Source: a virus
Taxonomy: Duplodnaviria > Heunggongvirae > Uroviricota > Caudoviricetes
Direction: 5' to 3' (one strand)
DNA: 8,857 nucleotides
Virus record (IMG/VR): IMGVR_UViG_2541047595_000014
Shown: piece by piece, positions 2,672-8,604 of the stretch
How positions within the stretch are numbered: the stretch's first letter is position 1
Layout: each line of letters starts with the position of its first letter
Program-made: the position numbers and the translations under genes
The notes under the pieces: model-generated
The model's input: the letters and a program-made list of their open reading frames with translations, nothing else
Told to the model about the DNA's origin: nothing
Databases searched by the model: none

Positions 2672-3979
2672 TTAAATCCGAAGTGATGTGACTCTTCCGG
2701 TCGGTTTGACAATAGGGAATTGCTTAACGATGAAATAACCTCCGGCATCATTCGGGTGATCATTGCCAGATTTTTTATCAGGCTCCCCCTTATCATCCCA
2801 GACCTGTTGCTCCAGAGATTCGGCATATACCGGACAACGCTTCACATTAACTTTATAGCGACGCTCACCATTGGCATTGCAGAACATTGCATTCATTGAG
2901 TTAACGCGATCTTTTACTGGCGGGTTCGAGCTGTTCACCACAACGTTAAAACCTGCCTGCTTAAGCTGGGCTATATCCGTCGTACTTGCGTTACTTGATT
3001 TTCTGGAATCTCCGGAAGCATCTGGATAAATATAAATCTCCCTCACTTTCCGGTAATCATGCCCGTCATACAGCCAGAAGCGTTCTTTAATGAGGCGGAT
3101 CATATCCGGCGTATCGTAGGCATTGATGATTTCAGTTACCGCACATGGAAGCCCCAAACGCAGCACATGGACGATTCCCGCCATCTTTCCAACGTTAAAA
3201 TCCATCCCAATATAAATCGGCTCCCCTGGCTGCTCCACTTCTTCGCAATTATTCAGTTTCCGGTCAAACTGATGGTAAACAGTACCACTTGTCAGGTTAG
3301 TAAACCGTCCTAGAAGATAGGCTTTAATCAGCTCTGGAGGGTATGATTCAAGAAGTGAAGGAATGTAATCTGCTGGCAGGTTCTTTTCATTATCGAAAGT
3401 AGATGCCTGCACCAGACCATACAGTGAGGCCAGCTCTGTTTTTTCACGCACGGCTTTAACAAACTGCTCGTAGACAAATTTGAATCCTTCCGGCGTGGTT
3501 GTAACGTCAATACCGTTGCGAAGTCCATCAATCTTATAACGCATACGCGCAATTATCTTGCGCCACGCCGTTCTGGCTTTTTCCTTCGGCAAAATGTCCA
3601 GTTCATCCACCAGCGCATTACCAATTTTGAAACCGACGATCGTTTGTGGCTTCTCCATCGATCTGCAGATAGTGGTTCCCCGATACTGGCGTCCGTAATA
3701 AAAGTGAACCTCTTTATTTCCCTCATTAATTTTTACGTTCAATCCCCAGTCAGCAGCAACTTCTTCCACTGTAGGGTAAAAAATATCGCGAATTTGGGGA
3801 TACGTTGGCGCAAAATATCCCTGATTTATACCTGGATGCTCCCAAATCCCCTTGCATATGCCGCCACACCCAACCCATGTTTTGCCCGAGCCAAAACCAG
3901 CAATATAGGCTTTAAATTTATGGGGCATTGAAAGAAATCGCGCCTGAGGCACATTAAGCGTCGGAGAGATCATCTTCAT
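2672..3979 (-). CDS. Terminase large subunit (ATPase plus nuclease)
   Basis: N-terminal Walker A motif AGFGSGKT (encoded around 3878-3898), a hydrophobic-DELD Walker B-like stretch (LVDELD), and C-terminal acidic motifs (IGMDFN, YPDASGD) consistent with an RNase H-like nuclease domain. The ORF track starts at a GTG at 3982; I prefer the ATG at 3979 (AAGGAG Shine-Dalgarno just upstream), though the ATG at 3973 is also possible. Overlaps terS 3' end by 26 bp. Confidence 0.9.
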   Translation of the reverse strand: MKMISPTLNVPQARFLSMPHKFKAYIAGFGSGKTWVGCGGICKGIWEHPGINQGYFAPTYPQIRDIFYPTVEEVAADWGLNVKINEGNKEVHFYYGRQYRGTTICRSMEKPQTIVGFKIGNALVDELDILPKEKARTAWRKIIARMRYKIDGLRNGIDVTTTPEGFKFVYEQFVKAVREKTELASLYGLVQASTFDNEKNLPADYIPSLLESYPPELIKAYLLGRFTNLTSGTVYHQFDRKLNNCEEVEQPGEPIYIGMDFNVGKMAGIVHVLRLGLPCAVTEIINAYDTPDMIRLIKERFWLYDGHDYRKVREIYIYPDASGDSRKSSNASTTDIAQLKQAGFNVVVNSSNPPVKDRVNSMNAMFCNANGERRYKVNVKRCPVYAESLEQQVWDDKGEPDKKSGNDHPNDAGGYFIVKQFPIVKPTGRVTSLRI

Positions 3980-5048
3980 CACTCCTTAATCTGGCATCAA
4001 CCACATTAATATTGATCGCCACAGGCTGGGGATGTTCATTATCCTCCACCGTTTCGATCTCTTTGCGCAGCTTCTGGTTCTCTATTCTGCGCCGTTCAAT
4101 TTCCAGTTCCTGTAGCCGCTTATCTGCACATAATGCCCCGCCAGCAGAAAGCAAACGCAACAATTCACGCCGGGCGGCAGCCTTATCCTCCAGCAGGATC
4201 TCAACACCGTATTTTCCGAGCTTTGACCCTGCATATAATTGCCGCGCATCCCCATCAAGCAGTGTGGTATCAGCCATATAAAGCTGTCCTGTTCCCTCAC
4301 CGCAGCACTTCGGGCAATCAGGATTGGGTATGGCGTTATCAACAAAGCCGAGGCCTCCATATTCCGGCTCGGGTTTACCATCTCTGGAGGCCTGTGCCGC
4401 AGCCTTATCGAATTCTGCAATATCACGCCACTGGTAGAGATGATTCTCGCCCCAGCAATAACGGCAGTTAACACGGCGAAATTGTGCCAACTGATTGGGG
4501 TCGGCCTGGACAATGGCCATCAACTGGCTCACCAGTAAATCCAGGTCTGCGGTATAGCGTTTCTGGTACTGATTGCGGAAGTAGCTGATAGCACGATAAA
4601 CCCTGGCATTTCTAAGCATACGGCTGGCGTTGCTGTTAGCTGTCGCACCTTGCCCCTCATAACCAGCCAGTCGGTATGCCTCTGTCGGCTTTTTCCCCTG
4701 AGCAACCAACATGGCGAATTTTGCCTGCTGGTCAGAAATACCGAATTCATCGGGGCAGAACGAAATTTCTTCCGTGTCCCCCTCAATCAGGAGTGCATCG
4801 GATACAGCCTTTTTTTTCTGAGATTTTCCGTTCTGCCTTTGCGCAGTCTGCGCAGTTTTTTTTCGCGCACTTTTTTGCGCAGTTTTGCGCATTTCTTTCT
4901 GCGCATTTTTCGGAGTTTTTTTGATGTAACGACGGGCTGTTGCGTAGTTCAGTCCCCTTGCTTCACACCATGCCACCGGAGATATACCGGAGCGGGTGTA
5001 TTCAGCAATATACTCCTGCTGCAACGCCCCCCAGTCCGGTCTGCTCAT
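3954..5048 (-). CDS. Terminase small subunit, unusually long multi-domain form
   Basis: 364-aa ORF directly upstream of and overlapping terL. The central region (FAMLVAQGKKPTEAYRLAGYEG...SNASRMLRNARVY) resembles the Terminase_2-type small-subunit DNA-binding fold. It also has an N-terminal HTH-like segment, a Lys-rich low-complexity linker, a C-terminal Cys-x2-Cys...Cys-x2-Cys-Cys motif (CRYC...CPKCC) and a charged coiled-coil-like tail. ATG at 5048 with AGGA about 8 nt upstream. Confidence 0.75.
   Translation of the reverse strand: MSRPDWGALQQEYIAEYTRSGISPVAWCEARGLNYATARRYIKKTPKNAQKEMRKTAQKSARKKTAQTAQRQNGKSQKKKAVSDALLIEGDTEEISFCPDEFGISDQQAKFAMLVAQGKKPTEAYRLAGYEGQGATANSNASRMLRNARVYRAISYFRNQYQKRYTADLDLLVSQLMAIVQADPNQLAQFRRVNCRYCWGENHLYQWRDIAEFDKAAAQASRDGKPEPEYGGLGFVDNAIPNPDCPKCCGEGTGQLYMADTTLLDGDARQLYAGSKLGKYGVEILLEDKAAARRELLRLLSAGGALCADKRLQELEIERRRIENQKLRKEIETVEDNEHPQPVAININVVDARLRSDEDDLSDA
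4805..4925. repeat. Low-complexity repeat tract inside terS (T-runs and GCGCA repeats on plus strand)
   Basis: Plus strand shows tgcgcag / ttttgcgca units interspersed with T homopolymers of 6-8 nt (for example 4810-4817 and 4856-4863). On the coding strand this encodes the Lys-rich linker KKTPKNAQKEMRKTAQKSARKKTAQTAQRQNGKSQKKK. Seen directly in sequence. Confidence 0.8.
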
Positions 5049-5051
5049 CAG

Positions 5052-5303
5052 TTAGTCCTGATTTTTATCCACCCTGAGTAGTTCGCGCAGAGCAAAGGCA
5101 TCCCCTTTTCTGGCAAGCTTAAACAATGCCGCTCGTAACTCGGCTTCACCTTTCGCTCTGCCCTTACGGATGGCCGCATAAAAATCTGTCATTGCTTCCC
5201 GATTTTCTTTCAGTCGGTTCAGATCAACATCCAGAACGTCAGCGATTTGTTGTGCAGTCATCCGGCACGCTGCCAGAGACTCGACTTTCGAATACGGAAT
5301 CAT
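5052..5303 (-). CDS. Small hypothetical protein (83 aa), possibly helix-turn-helix, leading the packaging operon
   Basis: ATG at 5303 preceded by GGGGGTGA (Shine-Dalgarno-like). Stop TAA at 5052-5054 is separated from the terS ATG by one codon (TAA-CTG-ATG) and is in the same reading frame as terS. Basic, helix-rich sequence (TAQQIADVLDVDLNRL...). Function not recognisable from sequence. Confidence 0.5.
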   Translation of the reverse strand: MIPYSKVESLAACRMTAQQIADVLDVDLNRLKENREAMTDFYAAIRKGRAKGEAELRAALFKLARKGDAFALRELLRVDKNQD

Positions 5304-6171
5304 TTGTCACCCCCATTGATATGCAGGGTGTCTTCTTCCTGTATTTTTCGTGAAGGATTTTTACTGCAGCGTTGTTCCAGGTGACCTGATGGTGAATGCG
5401 TTTATGGCTGGCACCCATCAGTGAGATTTTTACGCACGACGGCGAATACATGACGGAGTAAAAACTTTTAACGTAGGTTCCGGAATCCAGATACAGCTCG
5501 GTCATTCCGCCGCTGTTTTTCTGAGTCTGTTTCTGCCCTAACTGGACAGCACCGATCGTCATAAACAATTCACCACAGCGACCGAGATTCGTGTACGTAT
5601 TCACATCCTCGTTAATGCGCCCCATGAATGAGAACGGTCGATCAACCGAACAGATAAAGCTGTTCATTGCCTTGCGTTTCACCCACGAAGCATGGCCGCC
5701 ATTGTCACCAAGAAAATCCCCGCCCTGCGACATAGCGATGGAAAGCGCGGGTATTGATTCGTAATACGCCAGCATTTCAGAAAGGATCGCATCCAGTTTC
5801 CTTATCGGGAAATAGGCCTGGTCATAGTTGCGATCCACCCGAAACTGGAACTCGTGATAATCATCATCGAGCTGAATGAAGTATTTACACCCGACCAGTT
5901 TTGCCAGGTCGAAACAGGCATTACGGGCGTAAAAAATTGAGCGGCGATCACCAAAATTATCGGCTTCGTCAAAACGACTGGCAATATCGGCTTTGGAAAA
6001 TACCAGCACCTGTTCACCAAATTCAGCCATGTACTGATGCCGTGTCTTATCTTCATCATCAACAACGATAAAAATTTTCCCGGTATAGCCAGCACGACGC
6101 AACGTCCGGTAAGTCAGAACTTTGTCCGGTCGCCCGTGAGTCAGAATAAAGGCGCAAAAATCATCACGCAT
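5239..6171 (-). CDS. GT-A-fold (GT2-like) glycosyltransferase-like protein, apparently soluble
   Basis: Preferred start is the ATG at 6171, immediately preceded by GGGAGGAGGAGGAGG (strong Shine-Dalgarno); the ORF-track start at 6195 is rejected. The N-terminal ~105 aa show the GT2 motif order: AFILTHGRP (first strand), KIFIVVDDED (acidic nucleotide-binding loop), then FYARNACFDLAKLVGCKYFIQLDDDY with the DDD (DxD) encoded at 5860-5868. No obvious transmembrane segment. Function is inferred from motif pattern only. Confidence 0.55.
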   Translation of the reverse strand: MRDDFCAFILTHGRPDKVLTYRTLRRAGYTGKIFIVVDDEDKTRHQYMAEFGEQVLVFSKADIASRFDEADNFGDRRSIFYARNACFDLAKLVGCKYFIQLDDDYHEFQFRVDRNYDQAYFPIRKLDAILSEMLAYYESIPALSIAMSQGGDFLGDNGGHASWVKRKAMNSFICSVDRPFSFMGRINEDVNTYTNLGRCGELFMTIGAVQLGQKQTQKNSGGMTELYLDSGTYVKSFYSVMYSPSCVKISLMGASHKRIHHQVTWNNAAVKILHEKYRKKTPCISMGVTNDSVFESRVSGSVPDDCTTNR

Positions 6172-6958
6172 ATTCCTCCTCCTCCTCCCCGCCATGCATG
6201 ATCTCCACCATGCGCTGCGTCATTCGGACAAATCCATTTTCAATAGCCTGCTGATAATCAATGATCACCAGCGCCGACTCCTCGAAAAGGCACTGAATTT
6301 CAGCGGGGGCATGAGCGTAATAGTCCGCAATTCTGCTGAAATTAAACACTGTGTGACGTTCTGCCGCACACAGGAGGAATTTCTCAATATCAGGATCAAG
6401 GGACGCCGAACGTATCCGGCTGATCAGCTCCTGAGTTTTCGTATCGTCGTACAGTTCACTGATATCCGGTTTACCGCCCGACGGCTCATAAACAGGCGTA
6501 TCAATTTTCGTCGTATACGGCTCCTCCTCATTTCCTGTACCGGGCAAAACATCCGTCAACAGTTCATCAATTTCTGTCGGGATGAAGCCTGTCAGGGAGA
6601 CATCAAAATCAGCATTGATTAGGTCCGACAGCTCCATCCGCAACAGATCTTCATCCCAGCCAGCATTCATCGGCAGGCGATTATCTGCCAGGCGGTACGC
6701 CTTTTTCTGCTCATCCGTCAGGCCAGACAGAACAATGACCGGAACAGAATCCATTTTGAGCATTTCAGCCGCCATAACACGACCGTGACCCGCAATAATT
6801 TTGCCCTTTTCGTCAATCAGCACCGGATTAGTCCAGCCGAATTGCTTAATACTTTCTACCAGTTGTGCCACCTGCTCAGTACTGTGCGTCCTGGCATTGT
6901 GCGCATACGGTGACAATTCTTGTAATGGGCGATAGACTATCTTTAATTTCTCGCTCAT
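6164..6958 (-). CDS. ParB-like nuclease domain (ParB/Sulfiredoxin fold) protein
   Basis: N-terminal ~90 aa (YRPLQELSPYAHNARTHSTEQVAQLVESIKQFGWTNPVLIDEKGKIIAGHGRVMAA) match the ParB N-terminal domain pattern, including the GHGR motif. The C-terminal ~170 aa have unknown function and end in an acidic tail (GGEEEEEYA). ATG at 6958 with AAGG upstream; overlaps the next gene by 8 bp. From memory this may be the full-length counterpart of the short ynaK ORF of the K-12 Rac prophage, but I cannot verify that without a search. Confidence 0.8.
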   Translation of the reverse strand: MSEKLKIVYRPLQELSPYAHNARTHSTEQVAQLVESIKQFGWTNPVLIDEKGKIIAGHGRVMAAEMLKMDSVPVIVLSGLTDEQKKAYRLADNRLPMNAGWDEDLLRMELSDLINADFDVSLTGFIPTEIDELLTDVLPGTGNEEEPYTTKIDTPVYEPSGGKPDISELYDDTKTQELISRIRSASLDPDIEKFLLCAAERHTVFNFSRIADYYAHAPAEIQCLFEESALVIIDYQQAIENGFVRMTQRMVEIMHGGEEEEEYA

Positions 6959-6974: not shown

Positions 6975-7012
6975 AATAAAACGCACCCCAGCAGCCAGTG
7001 CTACTGGGGGCG
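6975..7012 (-). terminator. Candidate rho-independent terminator downstream of trkG
   Basis: Minus-strand RNA: CGC-CCCCAGUAG, loop CACUGG, CUGCUGGGG-(U)-GCG, followed directly by UUUUAUU. That is a 9-bp core stem with one G-U wobble, extendable to 12 bp with a single bulge. It lies between the trkG stop (7096) and the ParB-like gene's ribosome-binding site. Confidence 0.45.
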
Positions 7013-7095: not shown

Positions 7096-8553
7096 TTAGG
7101 AGCGCCAAAAAAAACCTGAAAACAATATAATAACAGGATAAATTTCAAGGCGACCAAGAATCATAGCTATGCACATTAAATATTTTGCAATGTCATTAAG
7201 CACTCCGAATGACGATGCAGTAGCCCCAAAACCTAATCCCATATTATTAATACATGCAGCCACTGTTGCAAATGATGTAAGAAAATCATATCCCATACCA
7301 TTTAACACCAGTATAAAAAACACCGTGAAGAGAGTATAAAGAAAAAAGAAACTCCATACAGACCTCATTACACGATCTGTAACTATCTTCCCTCCTACAT
7401 TTACACTTAACAACGCTCTGGGATGAGAAAGTTGATTTATCTCGTGTTTGCTTTGTTTGAAAAGTATAAGAAATCGAAGTGACTTAATTCCACCACAGGT
7501 TGAACCGATACATCCCCCAAAGAAACTTGACAACAGCAAAAACACTATCGTGTGCGTGGGCCAGTTTGCATAATCCTGCGTAGCTAAACCATTATCAGTG
7601 AGCATGGAGCTGGCAAGAAAAAACGAATGAATAAAACTTCCATGCAAGTCATACATACCTATATGCCAGACCTGGAAAGAGGTAACAATGATCACCCCTA
7701 AGGCTATTAACAGAAAGAAACGAAGTTCAATATCTCTGATTAAAGGTTTTATCGTTTTTCTGCTAATAACAATATACCAAAGAGTGAAGTTGAAAGCCGA
7801 TAGCAGGGAAAAAGAACCAGCCACCAGCTCAACCAAATAGTTATTAAAATATCCGATACTCTCGCTATGAGTTGAGAAACCACCAAGCGAAACTGTGGAA
7901 ATCCCGTGACAAATAGCATCAAACAAAGACATTCCTGCAAGTCTATAACAGACAATACAAGCAATACCTAATAAAGAATAAGTTATCCACAGTGTCCGTG
8001 ACGTATCGGCCAGGCGGGGAGTGAGTTTGTCATCCTTAAATGGCCCCGGCATTTCTGACTGATAAAGCTTTGCACCACCAATACCCAATAATGGCAATAC
8101 AGCAACCGCCAGAACAATAACTCCTAAACCACCTATAAAATTTAACTGTGACCGATAGTACAAATATGCCCGAGGTAATGAACTAACATCATCAATTACA
8201 GTTGCTCCTGTTGTTGTTATTCCAGAAACCCCTTCAAATAGAGCATCAATGAACGTTAAATTAAGTTCTGAGTCAATCCATAAAGGGAATGCACTAATAA
8301 CAGAAAACAAAATCCAAAACATTACAATTATAATAAACCCATCACGGGTACGTAATTGAATGCCAGATTTCTTAGTTGTATACCACGCTCCGCCACCAAT
8401 GCAAAAAAATATAACGAAAGTTATAAAGAAAACGAACAGGCTTTTTTCTTTATAAAACAATGCTACAACCATTGGTGGCAACATTGAAAGACTATAGAGC
8501 CAAACCAGGAACCCACACATATGAGTAACAACTCTTACATGAGATGTATTCAT
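7096..8553 (-). CDS. trkG: Potassium uptake protein TrkG (TrkH/KtrB-family K+ transporter)
   Basis: Translation begins MNTSHVRVVTHMCGFLVWLYSLSMLPPMVVALFY..., which I recognise as E. coli TrkG, the Rac-prophage paralogue of TrkH. It is a multi-pass membrane protein with repeated glycine-containing pore-loop-like segments (TTTGATV, SLGGFST, NNMGLGFG). The ORF track's upstream start at 8571 is a TTG; the ATG at 8553 gives 485 aa, the TrkG length as I recall it. The region is visibly AT-rich relative to the flanking phage genes. Confidence 0.95.
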   Translation of the reverse strand: MNTSHVRVVTHMCGFLVWLYSLSMLPPMVVALFYKEKSLFVFFITFVIFFCIGGGAWYTTKKSGIQLRTRDGFIIIVMFWILFSVISAFPLWIDSELNLTFIDALFEGVSGITTTGATVIDDVSSLPRAYLYYRSQLNFIGGLGVIVLAVAVLPLLGIGGAKLYQSEMPGPFKDDKLTPRLADTSRTLWITYSLLGIACIVCYRLAGMSLFDAICHGISTVSLGGFSTHSESIGYFNNYLVELVAGSFSLLSAFNFTLWYIVISRKTIKPLIRDIELRFFLLIALGVIIVTSFQVWHIGMYDLHGSFIHSFFLASSMLTDNGLATQDYANWPTHTIVFLLLSSFFGGCIGSTCGGIKSLRFLILFKQSKHEINQLSHPRALLSVNVGGKIVTDRVMRSVWSFFFLYTLFTVFFILVLNGMGYDFLTSFATVAACINNMGLGFGATASSFGVLNDIAKYLMCIAMILGRLEIYPVIILFSGFFWRS

Positions 8554-8570
8554 ATCTAAATATTCTTTCA

Positions 8571-8604
8571 ATTATAACCACCTTGCTGCAATATTATGAT
8601 TATA
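8571..8604 (-). promoter_or_regulatory. Candidate promoter region for trkG (two perfect TATAAT hexamers on the minus strand)
   Basis: Minus-strand TATAAT at 8599-8604 and again at 8571-8576, in an AT-rich leader upstream of the trkG ATG. No convincing -35 (TTGACA-like) hexamer found at 16-18 bp spacing, so this is a weak call. Confidence 0.25.

Follow-up and report, generated by a model that had tools for sequence, protein, structure and literature searches.

The locus described here raises a simple question: what do a ParB-like protein and a glycosyltransferase, encoded by overlapping genes upstream of the terminase genes of a prophage, do together? The window, meaning the whole 8,857-nucleotide stretch of DNA that was analyzed (IMG/VR record IMGVR_UViG_2541047595_000014), comes from an intact Rac-type E. 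coli prophage.

Layout of the locus

A preliminary description of the sequence had placed a ParB-like gene and a glycosyltransferase gene side by side between the trkG moron and the terminase genes terS and terL. The open reading frame (ORF) listing found both genes there at the same coordinates, on the minus strand, as are all features described below. Upstream of the pair is trkG (8571..7096, identified by its ORF and Pfam), and downstream are terS (5048..3954) and then terL (3982..2672), with Pfam matches to Terminase_2 and Terminase_6N/6C in the terS/terL block (2672..5048). The first gene of the pair is of the ynaK type and encodes a ParB-like protein of 264 aa (6164..6958). For the second gene, the longest ORF opens at 6195 and corresponds to 318 aa. 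However, because all homologues begin at an MRDDF motif, the ATG at 6171-6169 was taken as the start codon, giving a 310-aa glycosyltransferase (5239..6171). With the stop codon of the ParB-like gene (TGA) at 6166-6164, the two genes share 8 nt, ATGCGTGA, in agreement with the overlap reported earlier. The coupling region read from the sequence (6164..6189) also includes a purine run, GGGAGGAGGAGGAGG, at 6189-6175, 3-6 nt 5' of the glycosyltransferase ATG. This run doubles as the coding sequence for a poly-Glu tail (EEEEE) on the ParB-like protein.

A sequence scan located a terminator-like hairpin (6986..7009; 10 pairs, 7 of them G-C, followed by a T-rich tract) between the trkG stop codon and the start of the ParB-like gene. 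No promoter-like site was seen between this hairpin and the ParB start. From this arrangement, with terS/terL next in line, the pair reads as part of the late operon. Between the glycosyltransferase gene and terS lies an additional ORF of 83 aa (5052..5303), which encodes a basic protein (pI 9.25) resembling part of a small terminase subunit (PHROG 309, E 8.3e-23). Its start was set at 5303 because its N-terminus is conserved, and it shares 65 nt with the tail of the glycosyltransferase gene. That tail, comprising 20 non-conserved residues and the stop codon (5239..5301), extends beyond the point at which homologues end (about residue 289), and in E. coli it overruns the start of the next ORF. 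Homologues of the 83-aa ORF were found in four loci only (L004, L005, L016 and L037), and judged by this distribution it is an enterobacterial neighbor outside the universal module.

The glycosyltransferase and its ParB-like partner

The second protein of the pair had been labeled GT2-like. A GT-A glycosyltransferase with a DxD motif is what we found, but the GT2 label proved imprecise: the family is PF20691 (TAGT, for TET-associated glycosyltransferase), which matches residues 8-222 with 121.6 bits against a cut-off of 27.5 (E 5.5e-35). PHROG 842 covers residues 1-298 (E 1.4e-103), and the RefSeq name is "GREB1-related protein". The best viral matches in Foldseek are TAGT-domain proteins (E 3e-21, TM 0.64-0.70). 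The AF2 model used is confident in the N-half and unreliable in the C-half, and no solved structure for the family was found by sequence search. The metal/nucleotide-sugar motif DDD is formed by D102-D104 (5860..5868, GATGATGAT on the minus strand), and R14, D102-D104 and N187-E188-D189 do not vary among 15 aligned sequences, the most distant of which is 61% identical. The R...DDD...ED(Y/F) signature is therefore kept, except that the residue following ED is Val rather than Tyr/Phe. The R...DDD...ED motif was defined in earlier work, where the same motifs are present in the base-J glucosyltransferase and in phage GT-A enzymes whose glycosylation target is 5hmC in DNA (bioRxiv 10.1101/2023.12.21.572611). 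On the basis of the profiles and the predicted fold, the protein is best classed as a member of the TAGT/base-J-GT-like DNA glycosyltransferase family and not as a generic GT2 enzyme. Beyond the Pfam model, residues 216-290 (5302..5526) form a conserved basic region (pI 9.7), which is a candidate DNA-contact region in a part of the protein where the AF2 model is poor.

The PDB fold matches of the glycosyltransferase are ordinary GT-A enzymes such as SpsA. Such matches would also suit an enzyme that glycosylates a small molecule or the cell envelope (a metabolite, a nucleotide, or a surface polymer, as for the prophage enzyme TarP), with the ParB link being incidental or regulatory. TarP is the top solved structural match of related phage GT-A enzymes (bioRxiv 10.1101/2023.12.21.572611), and nucleotide-activation enzymes are present in some relatives. 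However, glycosyltransferase identity remains at least 48% across phyla with different envelopes, neither membrane segments nor envelope genes are found in the module, and the enzyme has an obligate ParB-fold partner and late expression. We consider an envelope or small-molecule target highly improbable. Identity this high across phyla points to a substrate that every host possesses, DNA being one example.

The first protein of the pair had been described as a ParB-like nuclease. The ParB domain was detected (Pfam ParB_N, 28.0 bits against a cut-off of 26.3), but "nuclease" is a historical domain name, and Pfam and PHROG searches detected no nuclease family in either protein of the pair. No result points to nuclease activity, and the recognizable nuclease domain of HNH-type accessory proteins associated with terminases was not detected in either protein. 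PHROG 620 covers the full length of the ParB-like protein (E 4.8e-90), RefSeq names it ynaK or "ParB/Srx family N-terminal domain-containing protein", and it is strongly acidic (pI 4.5). Residues 1-135 (6554..6958) constitute a predicted nucleotide-binding domain with AF2 pLDDT values of 75-93. Foldseek matches this domain to Noc, ParB-CDP, KorB and PadC (E 5e-7 to 1e-5), and PDB profile searches match it to Noc and ParB (E 2e-5), with the GHGR motif (residues 57-60, nt 6779-6790) aligned to GERR. Profiles and the model together indicate a ParB-CTPase fold. The box residues N21-A-R23, G57-H-G-R60 and D92-N93 are kept, as are W101-D102; across phyla, N21, R23, G57, D92 and N93 are conserved in at least 90% of the sequences and R60 in 60-90%. 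According to the literature, the nucleotide binding and specificity of ParB-fold proteins are not predictable from sequence.

The relatives of this N-terminal domain are informative. It matches PHROG 498, a DNA methyltransferase family, with E 1.9e-50, and the MTase_II model of PADLOC matches residues 3-144 with E 1e-38, while the partition model TIGR00180 reaches 37.3 bits against a cut-off of 58.45 and stays below threshold. By these scores, the domain is most like ParB domains fused to phage DNA methyltransferases, far above partition ParB models. A partition (ParABS) function was rejected: Pfam detected no helix-turn-helix (HTH) family in the protein, no ParA was present in the neighborhoods, TIGR00180 is sub-threshold, and His58 takes the place of the GERR Glu. 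Of the three roles proposed in the preliminary description, glycosyl-type modification of phage DNA emerged as the best supported, through the TAGT family of the enzyme and the methyltransferase-type ParB domain of its partner.

The N-terminal domain is followed by a predicted disordered linker, with pLDDT below 50 for residues 137-167. Within the linker, residues 148-159 (6482..6517) form the linear motif Y-T-x-K-I-x-x-P-x-Y-E-P, and its Y, P and Y residues are invariant in a 16-sequence cross-phylum alignment, marking it as a candidate docking site or acceptor site. Next comes a helical C-terminal domain (residues ~160-255, 6194..6481). It is better conserved across phyla than the N-terminal domain. 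At 50% identity it is present in at least 1,000 clusters (1,195 among 1.84 billion representatives), nearly all of 250-310 aa with the domain placed at the C-terminus. Pfam searches with this domain returned only noise up to E 10, and a PDB sequence search gave no match over it. The fold search informs on the N-terminal domain only because AF2 confidence is low in the C-terminal domain. The profile and fold searches suggested earlier thus led to TAGT for the glycosyltransferase and to the ParB-CTPase fold for the ParB N-terminal domain, and left the ParB C-terminal domain without a match.

Pairing, neighborhood and the search for an acceptor

A co-occurrence census, also suggested in the preliminary description, showed that the two genes are conserved as neighbors. 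All 38 genome loci found via the glycosyltransferase have this ParB-like gene directly upstream, and all 80 viral loci found via the ParB C-terminal domain have the glycosyltransferase downstream. The pairing is obligate in these samples, far beyond chance. Automatic location of the start motif succeeded in 46 diverse loci (33 of 79 were dropped for failed location), and 39 of these 46 show a stop/start overlap of 8 or 11 nt. The paired loci are spread over Proteobacteria, Bacteroidota, Firmicutes, Planctomycetota, Saccharibacteria and Chlorobi. The pair is also carried by isolated viruses, among them HHTV-2, which infects archaea, and Lactobacillus phage phi jlb1, as well as by Nocardia phages. 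Intact copies were found in 889 of 5,426 complete E. coli genomes, or about one in six. In some loci additional domains are attached to either partner: L023 has a SAM-methyltransferase-like domain joined to ParB, and L034 has one joined to TAGT. A His-phosphatase plus cytidylyltransferase-like protein has its own gene, inserted between the two partners, in L103/L104, while in L100 it forms a fusion with ParB. The earlier suggestion that the glycosyltransferase might be doing something unrelated to its neighbor is contradicted by the strict co-inheritance, the translational coupling and the fusions to either partner.

Terminase genes of unrelated families are usually found downstream of the pair, and in most loci the module lies directly 5' of terS/terL, whatever the terminase family. 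The ParB-like protein could therefore be a packaging accessory that helps the terminase to recognize, cut or organize DNA, in the manner of terminase-adjacent HNH proteins, with the glycosyltransferase in a supporting or regulatory role; a role for ParB proteins during packaging has indeed been proposed (PMC8256090). However, no nuclease family was found in either protein, the ParB-like protein has no HTH and is strongly acidic, it never appears in the samples without the glycosyltransferase, and in HHTV-2 some 3 kb separate the pair from terL. The pair is also missing from many phages that have the same terminase families, and a 44%-identical glycosyltransferase has been placed without ParB in the replication module of Vibrio jumbo phages. 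In light of these points, a packaging accessory seems very unlikely. The Vibrio jumbo-phage enzyme has no ParB neighbor, and the genome carries an annotated thymidylate synthase.

If DNA is the target, an acceptor group would be expected, and to our knowledge canonical DNA has no hydroxyl group that would obviously serve an O-glycosyltransferase. Enzymes that could make such an acceptor were sought by Pfam scans of 36 diverse loci, covering three flanking genes on each side and further ORFs of 140-420 aa within 6 kb. Neither a TET/JBP enzyme nor a thymidylate-synthase-like hydroxymethylase was found within 6 kb in these loci (among the best 25 of 40 families for the outer ORFs). A C5 methylase was present in only three loci, with no consistent C5-methyltransferase, and no primary alpha/beta-glycosyltransferase was detected among the flanking ORFs. 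The Rac-like phage ON470614.1 gave the same picture: over the 38.7 kb of its record, which stops in the tail genes, the annotation and Pfam searches with ten less informatively annotated proteins revealed no TET/JBP enzyme, hydroxymethylase or primary alpha/beta-glycosyltransferase. On these two scans a hidden enzyme of this kind was rejected for the loci as a group, although one confined to a single locus may lie among the lower-ranked families.

One response to this result is that the acceptor comes from elsewhere. The glycosyltransferase might act on hydroxymethylated or glycosylated DNA, either the hmC/hmU DNA of a superinfecting phage, which would amount to prophage-mediated exclusion, or DNA made with a precursor that the host or genes located elsewhere supply. 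Known TAGT-type enzymes use 5hmC, 5hmU or glucosyl-hmC, an anti-phage role for prophage glycosyltransferases has been suggested in the literature, and E. coli, in which the pair is common, is infected by T-even phages. On the other hand, expression of the pair in a lysogen is not expected because it sits in a late operon, behind a terminator-like hairpin and with no promoter-like site of its own. The same module is also carried by an archaeal virus isolate and by phages of Lactobacillus and Nocardia. PADLOC returned no defence-system match apart from that of the ParB domain to the methyltransferase model, and none for the glycosyltransferase. A foreign acceptor is accordingly viewed as distinctly unlikely. 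The broader idea of a defence or exclusion cassette, one of the roles offered at the outset, gained no positive support from the PADLOC result or the late-operon position, and for the same two reasons was rejected as the main explanation.

Alternatively, the acceptor may be a protein. The glycosyltransferase would then modify its own ParB partner at the linker motif (Y-T-x-K-x-x-x-P-x-Y), or else a packaging or virion protein, with the ParB domain serving as a nucleotide-regulated scaffold. The related GREB1 glycosyltransferase domain O-GlcNAcylates a protein, the low-confidence linker of the partner contains the invariant motif with Tyr and Thr, a strict 1:1 pairing is what would be expected if the partner were the substrate, and no enzyme forming a DNA acceptor was found in the loci scanned. 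However, the linker motif could equally be a docking peptide, and a conserved packaging-protein target is unlikely because the downstream terminases belong to unrelated families. In addition, the nearest relatives of the ParB N-terminal domain are fused to DNA methyltransferases, and the phage members with experimentally shown activity discussed in the cited literature act on DNA. Protein glycosylation, including the scaffold role for ParB, is on balance unlikely.

A possible role in DNA glycosylation and related systems

We propose that the pair is expressed late and, with ParB assisting, attaches sugars to phage DNA ahead of packaging, a proposal to which we give about an even chance. Both genes would constitute a single late-expressed DNA-modification module, in which the TAGT-family GT-A enzyme would move a sugar from a nucleotide-sugar donor to phage DNA that has been replicated, either before it is packaged or while packaging proceeds. 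The enzyme's dedicated partner would be the acidic ParB-like protein that lacks an HTH: the ParB-CTPase-fold N-terminal domain may provide a nucleotide-dependent switch or clamp, and the family-specific C-terminal domain may tether or activate the glycosyltransferase on double-stranded DNA. The presumed benefit would be progeny DNA shielded from host nucleases. DNA as the acceptor, activation or targeting of the glycosyltransferase by ParB, and nuclease protection are what we infer from several lines of evidence, namely the glycosyltransferase family and motifs, the kinship of the ParB N-terminal domain, the reciprocal pairing, the gene overlap, the fusions, the late position and the precedent discussed below. 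Together they appear to make this the best supported reading. What argues against it is that the acceptor-forming enzyme was not found within 6 kb in the 36 loci or in the ON470614.1 record, that canonical DNA presents no evident hydroxyl acceptor, that the related GREB1 domain glycosylates a protein, that the models of the glycosyltransferase C-half and the ParB C-terminal domain are of low quality, and that in the dioxygenase precedent no stable complex of ParB and enzyme was trapped. A more specific version, in which a ParB clamp guides the glycosyltransferase to sugar DNA without any hydroxymethyl-pyrimidine precursor (on a canonical base, at packaging ends or nicks, or on an unrecognized acceptor), is rather unlikely.

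Recent papers report that phage glycosyltransferases of the TAGT type are in many cases encoded without the makers of known acceptors (bioRxiv 10.1101/2023.12.21.572611), and such "solitary" TAGTs have been noted in the literature as functionally undefined. The present analysis indicates that one large, highly conserved TAGT clade is never alone in the samples and is always accompanied by a dedicated ParB-fold partner, the C-terminal domain of which is specific to this clade. Under the proposed mechanism, assistance by ParB, a principle newly recognized for DNA-modifying dioxygenases, would apply to glycosyltransferases as well. If the sugar is indeed placed on DNA, prophages that are common in E. 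coli and gut bacteria have a DNA modification that escaped notice, with a bearing on restriction evasion, transduction, sequencing artefacts and phage engineering. If the sugar is added without a hydroxymethyl-pyrimidine, DNA modification would gain a new chemical class, encoded in about one-sixth of sequenced E. coli genomes, as well as in gut Bacteroidota prophages and an archaeal virus. Inducible Rac-type E. coli prophages with the pair have already been isolated and sequenced and offer an easy test system.

The initial claim that no characterized system has this exact pairing holds for the searchable literature: no functional study of the pair was found in work on ynaK, the HHTV-2 ParB, or GREB1-related and ParB-like prophage proteins. 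The pair is thus experimentally uncharacterized, but its glycosyltransferase family, the link between ParB and modification, and a ParB-dependent enzyme have already been described. By RefSeq naming and the literature, the same glycosyltransferase superfamily includes JGT, the kinetoplastid base-J glucosyltransferase, and GREB1. Unlike the present enzyme, both are eukaryotic; JGT requires 5hmU made by JBP, and GREB1 acts on protein. According to the literature, the characterized member of the TAGT family is the T2/T6 beta-glucosyl-HMC-alpha-glucosyltransferase. The enzyme studied here shares the Pfam family, PHROG, GT-A fold and R...DDD...ED motifs with it and with the GT-A enzymes associated with 5mYOX, although T-even-type homologues are only 23-26% identical. 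T2/T6-type enzymes use hmC or glucosyl-hmC from dedicated phage pathways that were not found here. Further distinctions of the present clade are the additional basic region conserved at the C-terminus and the obligate pairing with ParB.

On the ParB side, residues 3-144 strongly match the ParB domains of phage and prophage ParB-domain/DNA-methyltransferase fusions, which the literature reports to be enriched in prophages. In contrast to those fusions, the enzyme here is a separate, translationally coupled glycosyltransferase that would be engaged via a dedicated C-terminal domain. The fold of the N-terminal domain and its conserved phosphate-binding residues are shared with the CTP-dependent clamps partition ParB, Noc and KorB. 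The present protein differs from them in having no HTH and no ParA neighbor, in falling below the TIGR00180 cut-off, and in the changes of the GERR Glu to His58 and of the box-I Gln to Asn21.

The closest precedent is the family of ParB-dependent phage thymine dioxygenases, or 5mYOX/ParB pairs (O'Toole et al., PNAS 2026, PMC13229309), in which the dioxygenase needs a ParB with a nucleotide-binding and a C-terminal domain, and no DNA-binding domain, to act on double-stranded DNA. No stable ParB-enzyme complex was trapped in that system (PMC13229309). Earlier work, as cited in PMC8256090, suggests that ParB proteins may direct modification machinery to DNA during packaging. As in the 5mYOX/ParB pairs, an HTH-less ParB with a nucleotide-binding and a C-terminal domain is encoded here beside a cognate enzyme of DNA-modifying type, and the N-x-R motif and the box-II arginine are kept. 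The neighborhoods of 5mYOX/ParB pairs often include terminases and glycosyltransferases, just as a terminase and a glycosyltransferase are found here. The two systems differ in that the partner here is a glycosyltransferase, with no dioxygenase in the loci scanned, and in that the C-terminal domain belongs to an apparently separate, very conserved family tied one-to-one to TAGT.

Arrangement of the pair in the prophage

All long genes of the window share the minus strand and are transcribed in the order trkG (8571-7096), the gene for a ParB-like protein of 264 amino acids (6958-6164; ynaK in RefSeq, ParB/Srx family N-terminal domain-containing protein), the glycosyltransferase gene (6171-5239; "GREB1-related protein" in many RefSeq genomes), a basic 83-amino-acid ORF (5303-5052), terS (5048-3954) and terL (3982-2672), followed by a portal gene and a Mu-F-like head gene (167-1282). 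The head protein is called "NAD+--asparagine ADP-ribosyltransferase" in the annotation of phage record ON470614.1; Pfam gives a Phage_Mu_F domain only. The window represents an intact lambdoid prophage of the Rac type. Its identity to ten induced phages, of which nine are from E. coli (e.g. ON470614.1) and one is a Salmonella phage, is 98.6-98.7%. The 1.7-kb pair was found at a coverage of at least 80% in 889 of 5,426 complete E. coli genomes. Of 1,596 matches to the pair in E. coli, sixteen are plasmid-borne rather than chromosomal, possibly on phage-plasmids. In genomes of the K-12 type, the match is confined to the initial ∼250 bp of the ParB gene (window 6705-6958), annotated as ynaK and directly adjoining ydaY. 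K-12 ynaK is thus a 5' remnant, the Rac deletion having taken out the glycosyltransferase and terminase genes.

A terminator-like hairpin (7009-6986, minus strand) divides trkG from the pair, and a scan of the region from this hairpin to the start of the ParB gene found no promoter-like site. The trkG gene is AT-rich (GC content 0.34-0.41) compared with the pair (0.47-0.51) and with the neighbors of trkG (about 0.49). We infer that trkG is a separate insertion and that the late packaging operon starts with the pair. With its own terminator-like hairpin, the trkG insertion is flanked by the lysis genes on one side and by the ParB gene on the other. Certain enterotoxigenic E. coli have the LT-IIc toxin operon flanked by a lysozyme gene and a parB-like gene (PMC3252337), apparently in the slot that trkG takes up here.

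The preliminary description of this region reported two overlapping genes, the second with a strong ribosome-binding site, and both features hold. The glycosyltransferase start (ATG, 6171-6169) is backed by homologues, all of which begin with MR[DEN]DF, and the ParB stop (TGA, 6166-6164) gives an overlap of 8 nt, ATGCGTGA. Ahead of the ATG, the purine run GGGAGGAGGAGGAGG (6189-6175) doubles as code for the poly-Glu tail of the ParB-like protein. In this stretch (6167-6189, minus strand) the codons GAG-GAG-GAG-GAG-GAA serve as both acidic tail and Shine-Dalgarno-like run. Across phyla, many members of the ParB family end in an acidic tail, and the stop and start overlap by 8 or 11 nt in 39 of the 46 diverse loci where the glycosyltransferase start motif was locatable automatically. 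At its other end, the E. coli glycosyltransferase carries a 20-residue C-terminal tail (5239-5303) that homologues lack and that overlaps 65 nt at the start of the following ORF in a different frame; it looks like the product of a stop codon lost in the E. coli lineage. The N-terminus of that next, 83-amino-acid ORF (M-I/L-P-Y-x-K-x-E-x-L-A-A) is conserved in relatives. The ORF matches the middle of a small-terminase family (phrog_309, E 8e-23), is restricted to enterobacterial loci plus one other, and may be a DNA-binding piece split off the small terminase.

The two proteins

The second gene product is a clear member of the TET-associated glycosyltransferase family (TAGT; PF20691, 121.6 bits, E 5.5e-35) and falls in PHROG 842 (E 1.4e-103). 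Among the members of the family is the T2/T6 enzyme, which attaches a second glucose to glucosyl-hydroxymethylcytosine, and a "solitary" TAGT of undefined function was counted in 288 of 753 glycosyltransferase-encoding phage genomes (both from a 2026 paper). Phage GT-A enzymes with R...DDD...EDY/F motifs glycosylate 5hmC in DNA directly and resemble the base-J glucosyltransferase (bioRxiv 10.1101/2023.12.21.572611, a preprint from the NEB group). In our alignment, R14, D102-D104 and E188-D189 of the window protein are invariant among relatives. Its N-terminal half is predicted to adopt a GT-A fold, with TAGT-domain proteins as the best structural matches among viral proteins (E 3e-21), and a conserved basic region (residues 216-290, pI 9.7) extends past the Pfam model.

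The N-terminal domain of the ParB-like protein has the ParB-CTPase fold (Pfam ParB_N, 28 bits), with Foldseek matches to Noc, ParB-CDP, KorB and PadC. The GHGR (residues 57-60) and DDD (residues 102-104) motifs implied by the preliminary description are present in the two proteins. Phosphate-binding positions are retained (N21-x-R23, G57-x-x-R60 and D92-N93), and the Glu of the canonical ParB GERR motif is replaced by His58. Unlike partition ParBs, the protein has no HTH domain, and it scores below the threshold of the partition-ParB model. No neighboring ParA was found in the scanned neighborhoods. The N domain gives much higher scores against the ParB domains of phage DNA methyltransferase fusions (E 1.9e-50 and 1e-38) than against the partition-ParB model. 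With a pI of 4.5, the protein is acidic.

A predicted disordered linker follows, holding an invariant Y-T-x-K-I-x-x-P-x-Y-E-P motif. The enzyme might instead glycosylate a protein, possibly this partner at the Tyr and Thr residues of the motif; given a family with members that glycosylate DNA, we consider this reading rather unlikely. Beyond the linker lies a helical C-terminal domain that is more conserved across phyla than the N domain. It matches no Pfam family, and a search of 1.84 billion representatives with this region returned 1,195 clusters at 50% identity, nearly all of 250-310 amino acids with the domain at the C-terminus.

Conservation of the pair and its neighborhood

Whether the two genes are conserved as neighbors, a question raised by the preliminary description, was answered by a census in both directions. 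When the glycosyltransferase alignment was searched against one genome per species, 38 loci were found at ≥48% identity (Proteobacteria, Bacteroidota, Firmicutes, Planctomycetota, Saccharibacteria, Chlorobi and others), and this ParB gene lay immediately upstream on the same strand in 38/38. Searching IMG/VR with the ParB C-domain alone gave at least 555 matching stretches, and in the best 80 of these (43 of them diverse) the TAGT-type glycosyltransferase gene was downstream in every case; both samples are closest relatives by pattern search, and more distant members may differ. The genes directly adjoin or overlap in most of the 80; in two loci, L103 and L104, an inserted gene lies between them. 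Among isolated viruses, the pair is present in Lactobacillus phage phi jlb1 (ParB-TAGT-TerS-TerL) and in haloarchaeal virus HHTV-2, and glycosyltransferase homologues occur in several L. delbrueckii phages and Nocardia phage NTR1. Conservation is very high even between E. coli, Bacteroides and Haloarcula hosts, which points to a substrate that would be universal.

Vibrio jumbo phages (∼195 kb) encode a 44%-identical glycosyltransferase in a replication module, without a recognizable ParB. In Vibrio phage VB_VaC_SRILMA (4459-5888 of locus L041) and a further locus, L123, this TAGT has an N-terminal extension and lies between exonuclease and helicase genes; the Vibrio phage genome has annotated thymidylate synthase, DHFR and dNMP kinase genes.

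The one to three genes that follow the pair encode terminase subunits, small and large, from several families unrelated to each other (Terminase_6N 13, Terminase_3 9, GpA 2 and TerL_ATPase 1 among 88 ORFs scanned). This position would suit a packaging accessory, a role that we regard as very unlikely. Genes on the 5' side vary, with replication, recombination and lysis functions represented along with a few DNA methylases.

Several relatives carry additional domains. A SAM-methyltransferase-like domain is fused to the ParB N-terminus in locus L023 (189-1739), a homologous one (E 1e-48) is fused to the glycosyltransferase C-terminus in L034, and in L107 (1-468) it forms an ORF of its own, truncated at the contig end, immediately before ParB. 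L034 also has two tandem TAGT genes (3581-5275 and 5190-6161), which together with the methyltransferase-like domain suggests a two-sugar or methylated-sugar product. The gene inserted between the pair in L103 (2942-3895) and L104 (5314-6309) encodes a 317-amino-acid histidine-phosphatase plus cytidylyltransferase-like protein, and the same domains are fused to the ParB C-terminus in L100 (4566-6248). Such a protein may make a special activated donor; the relatives that have it are marine or environmental. Shuffling of domains between partners is as expected for proteins of one pathway, and the accessory enzymes belong to types that modify or activate sugars. Such enzymes would also fit glycosylation of a small molecule or of the envelope, which we find highly improbable beside an obligate ParB-fold partner.

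Proposed mechanism and relation to known systems

We favor a mechanism in which the glycosyltransferase would modify progeny phage DNA before or during packaging, assisted by the ParB-like protein, whose C-domain would act as adaptor for the enzyme and whose N domain would act as a nucleotide-dependent switch. Four points make this reading the most likely one: the chemistry of the enzyme family, the kind of ParB domain, the obligate coupling of the two genes, and their late position ahead of the terminase genes. It also draws on analogy with a phage thymine dioxygenase that requires a ParB without a DNA-binding domain to act on double-stranded DNA (PMC13229309). ParB proteins have been proposed to direct modification machinery to DNA during packaging, in work cited in PMC8256090.

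Known TAGT members need as acceptor a hydroxymethyl base or a sugar that the DNA already carries. Pfam scans of flanking ORFs (36 diverse loci; best 25 of 40 families for further ORFs) and of the Rac-like phage record ON470614.1 (38.7 kb; annotation plus ten proteins by Pfam) revealed neither a TET/JBP dioxygenase nor a thymidylate-synthase-like gene. Because no acceptor-forming enzyme was found, we hold ParB-assisted glycosylation of progeny DNA at roughly an even chance. An enzyme acting on foreign or otherwise supplied hydroxymethylated DNA would do without an acceptor maker of its own; with the pair placed just ahead of the terminase genes, we think this unlikely.

The searchable literature, which does not include the 2013 TAGT-defining paper, contained no functional study of the pair, in agreement with the earlier statement that no characterized system with this exact pairing was known. 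Nor did it offer an explanation for the missing acceptor-forming enzyme of this TAGT clade, or recognition of a large TAGT clade strictly tied to a dedicated ParB C-domain, a neighborhood that the 2013 paper may show. The pair matters because it is widespread and directly testable in E. coli. Earlier work already covers the glycosyltransferase family, the broad connection of ParB domains with DNA modification, and the ParB-dependent activation of a modifying enzyme.
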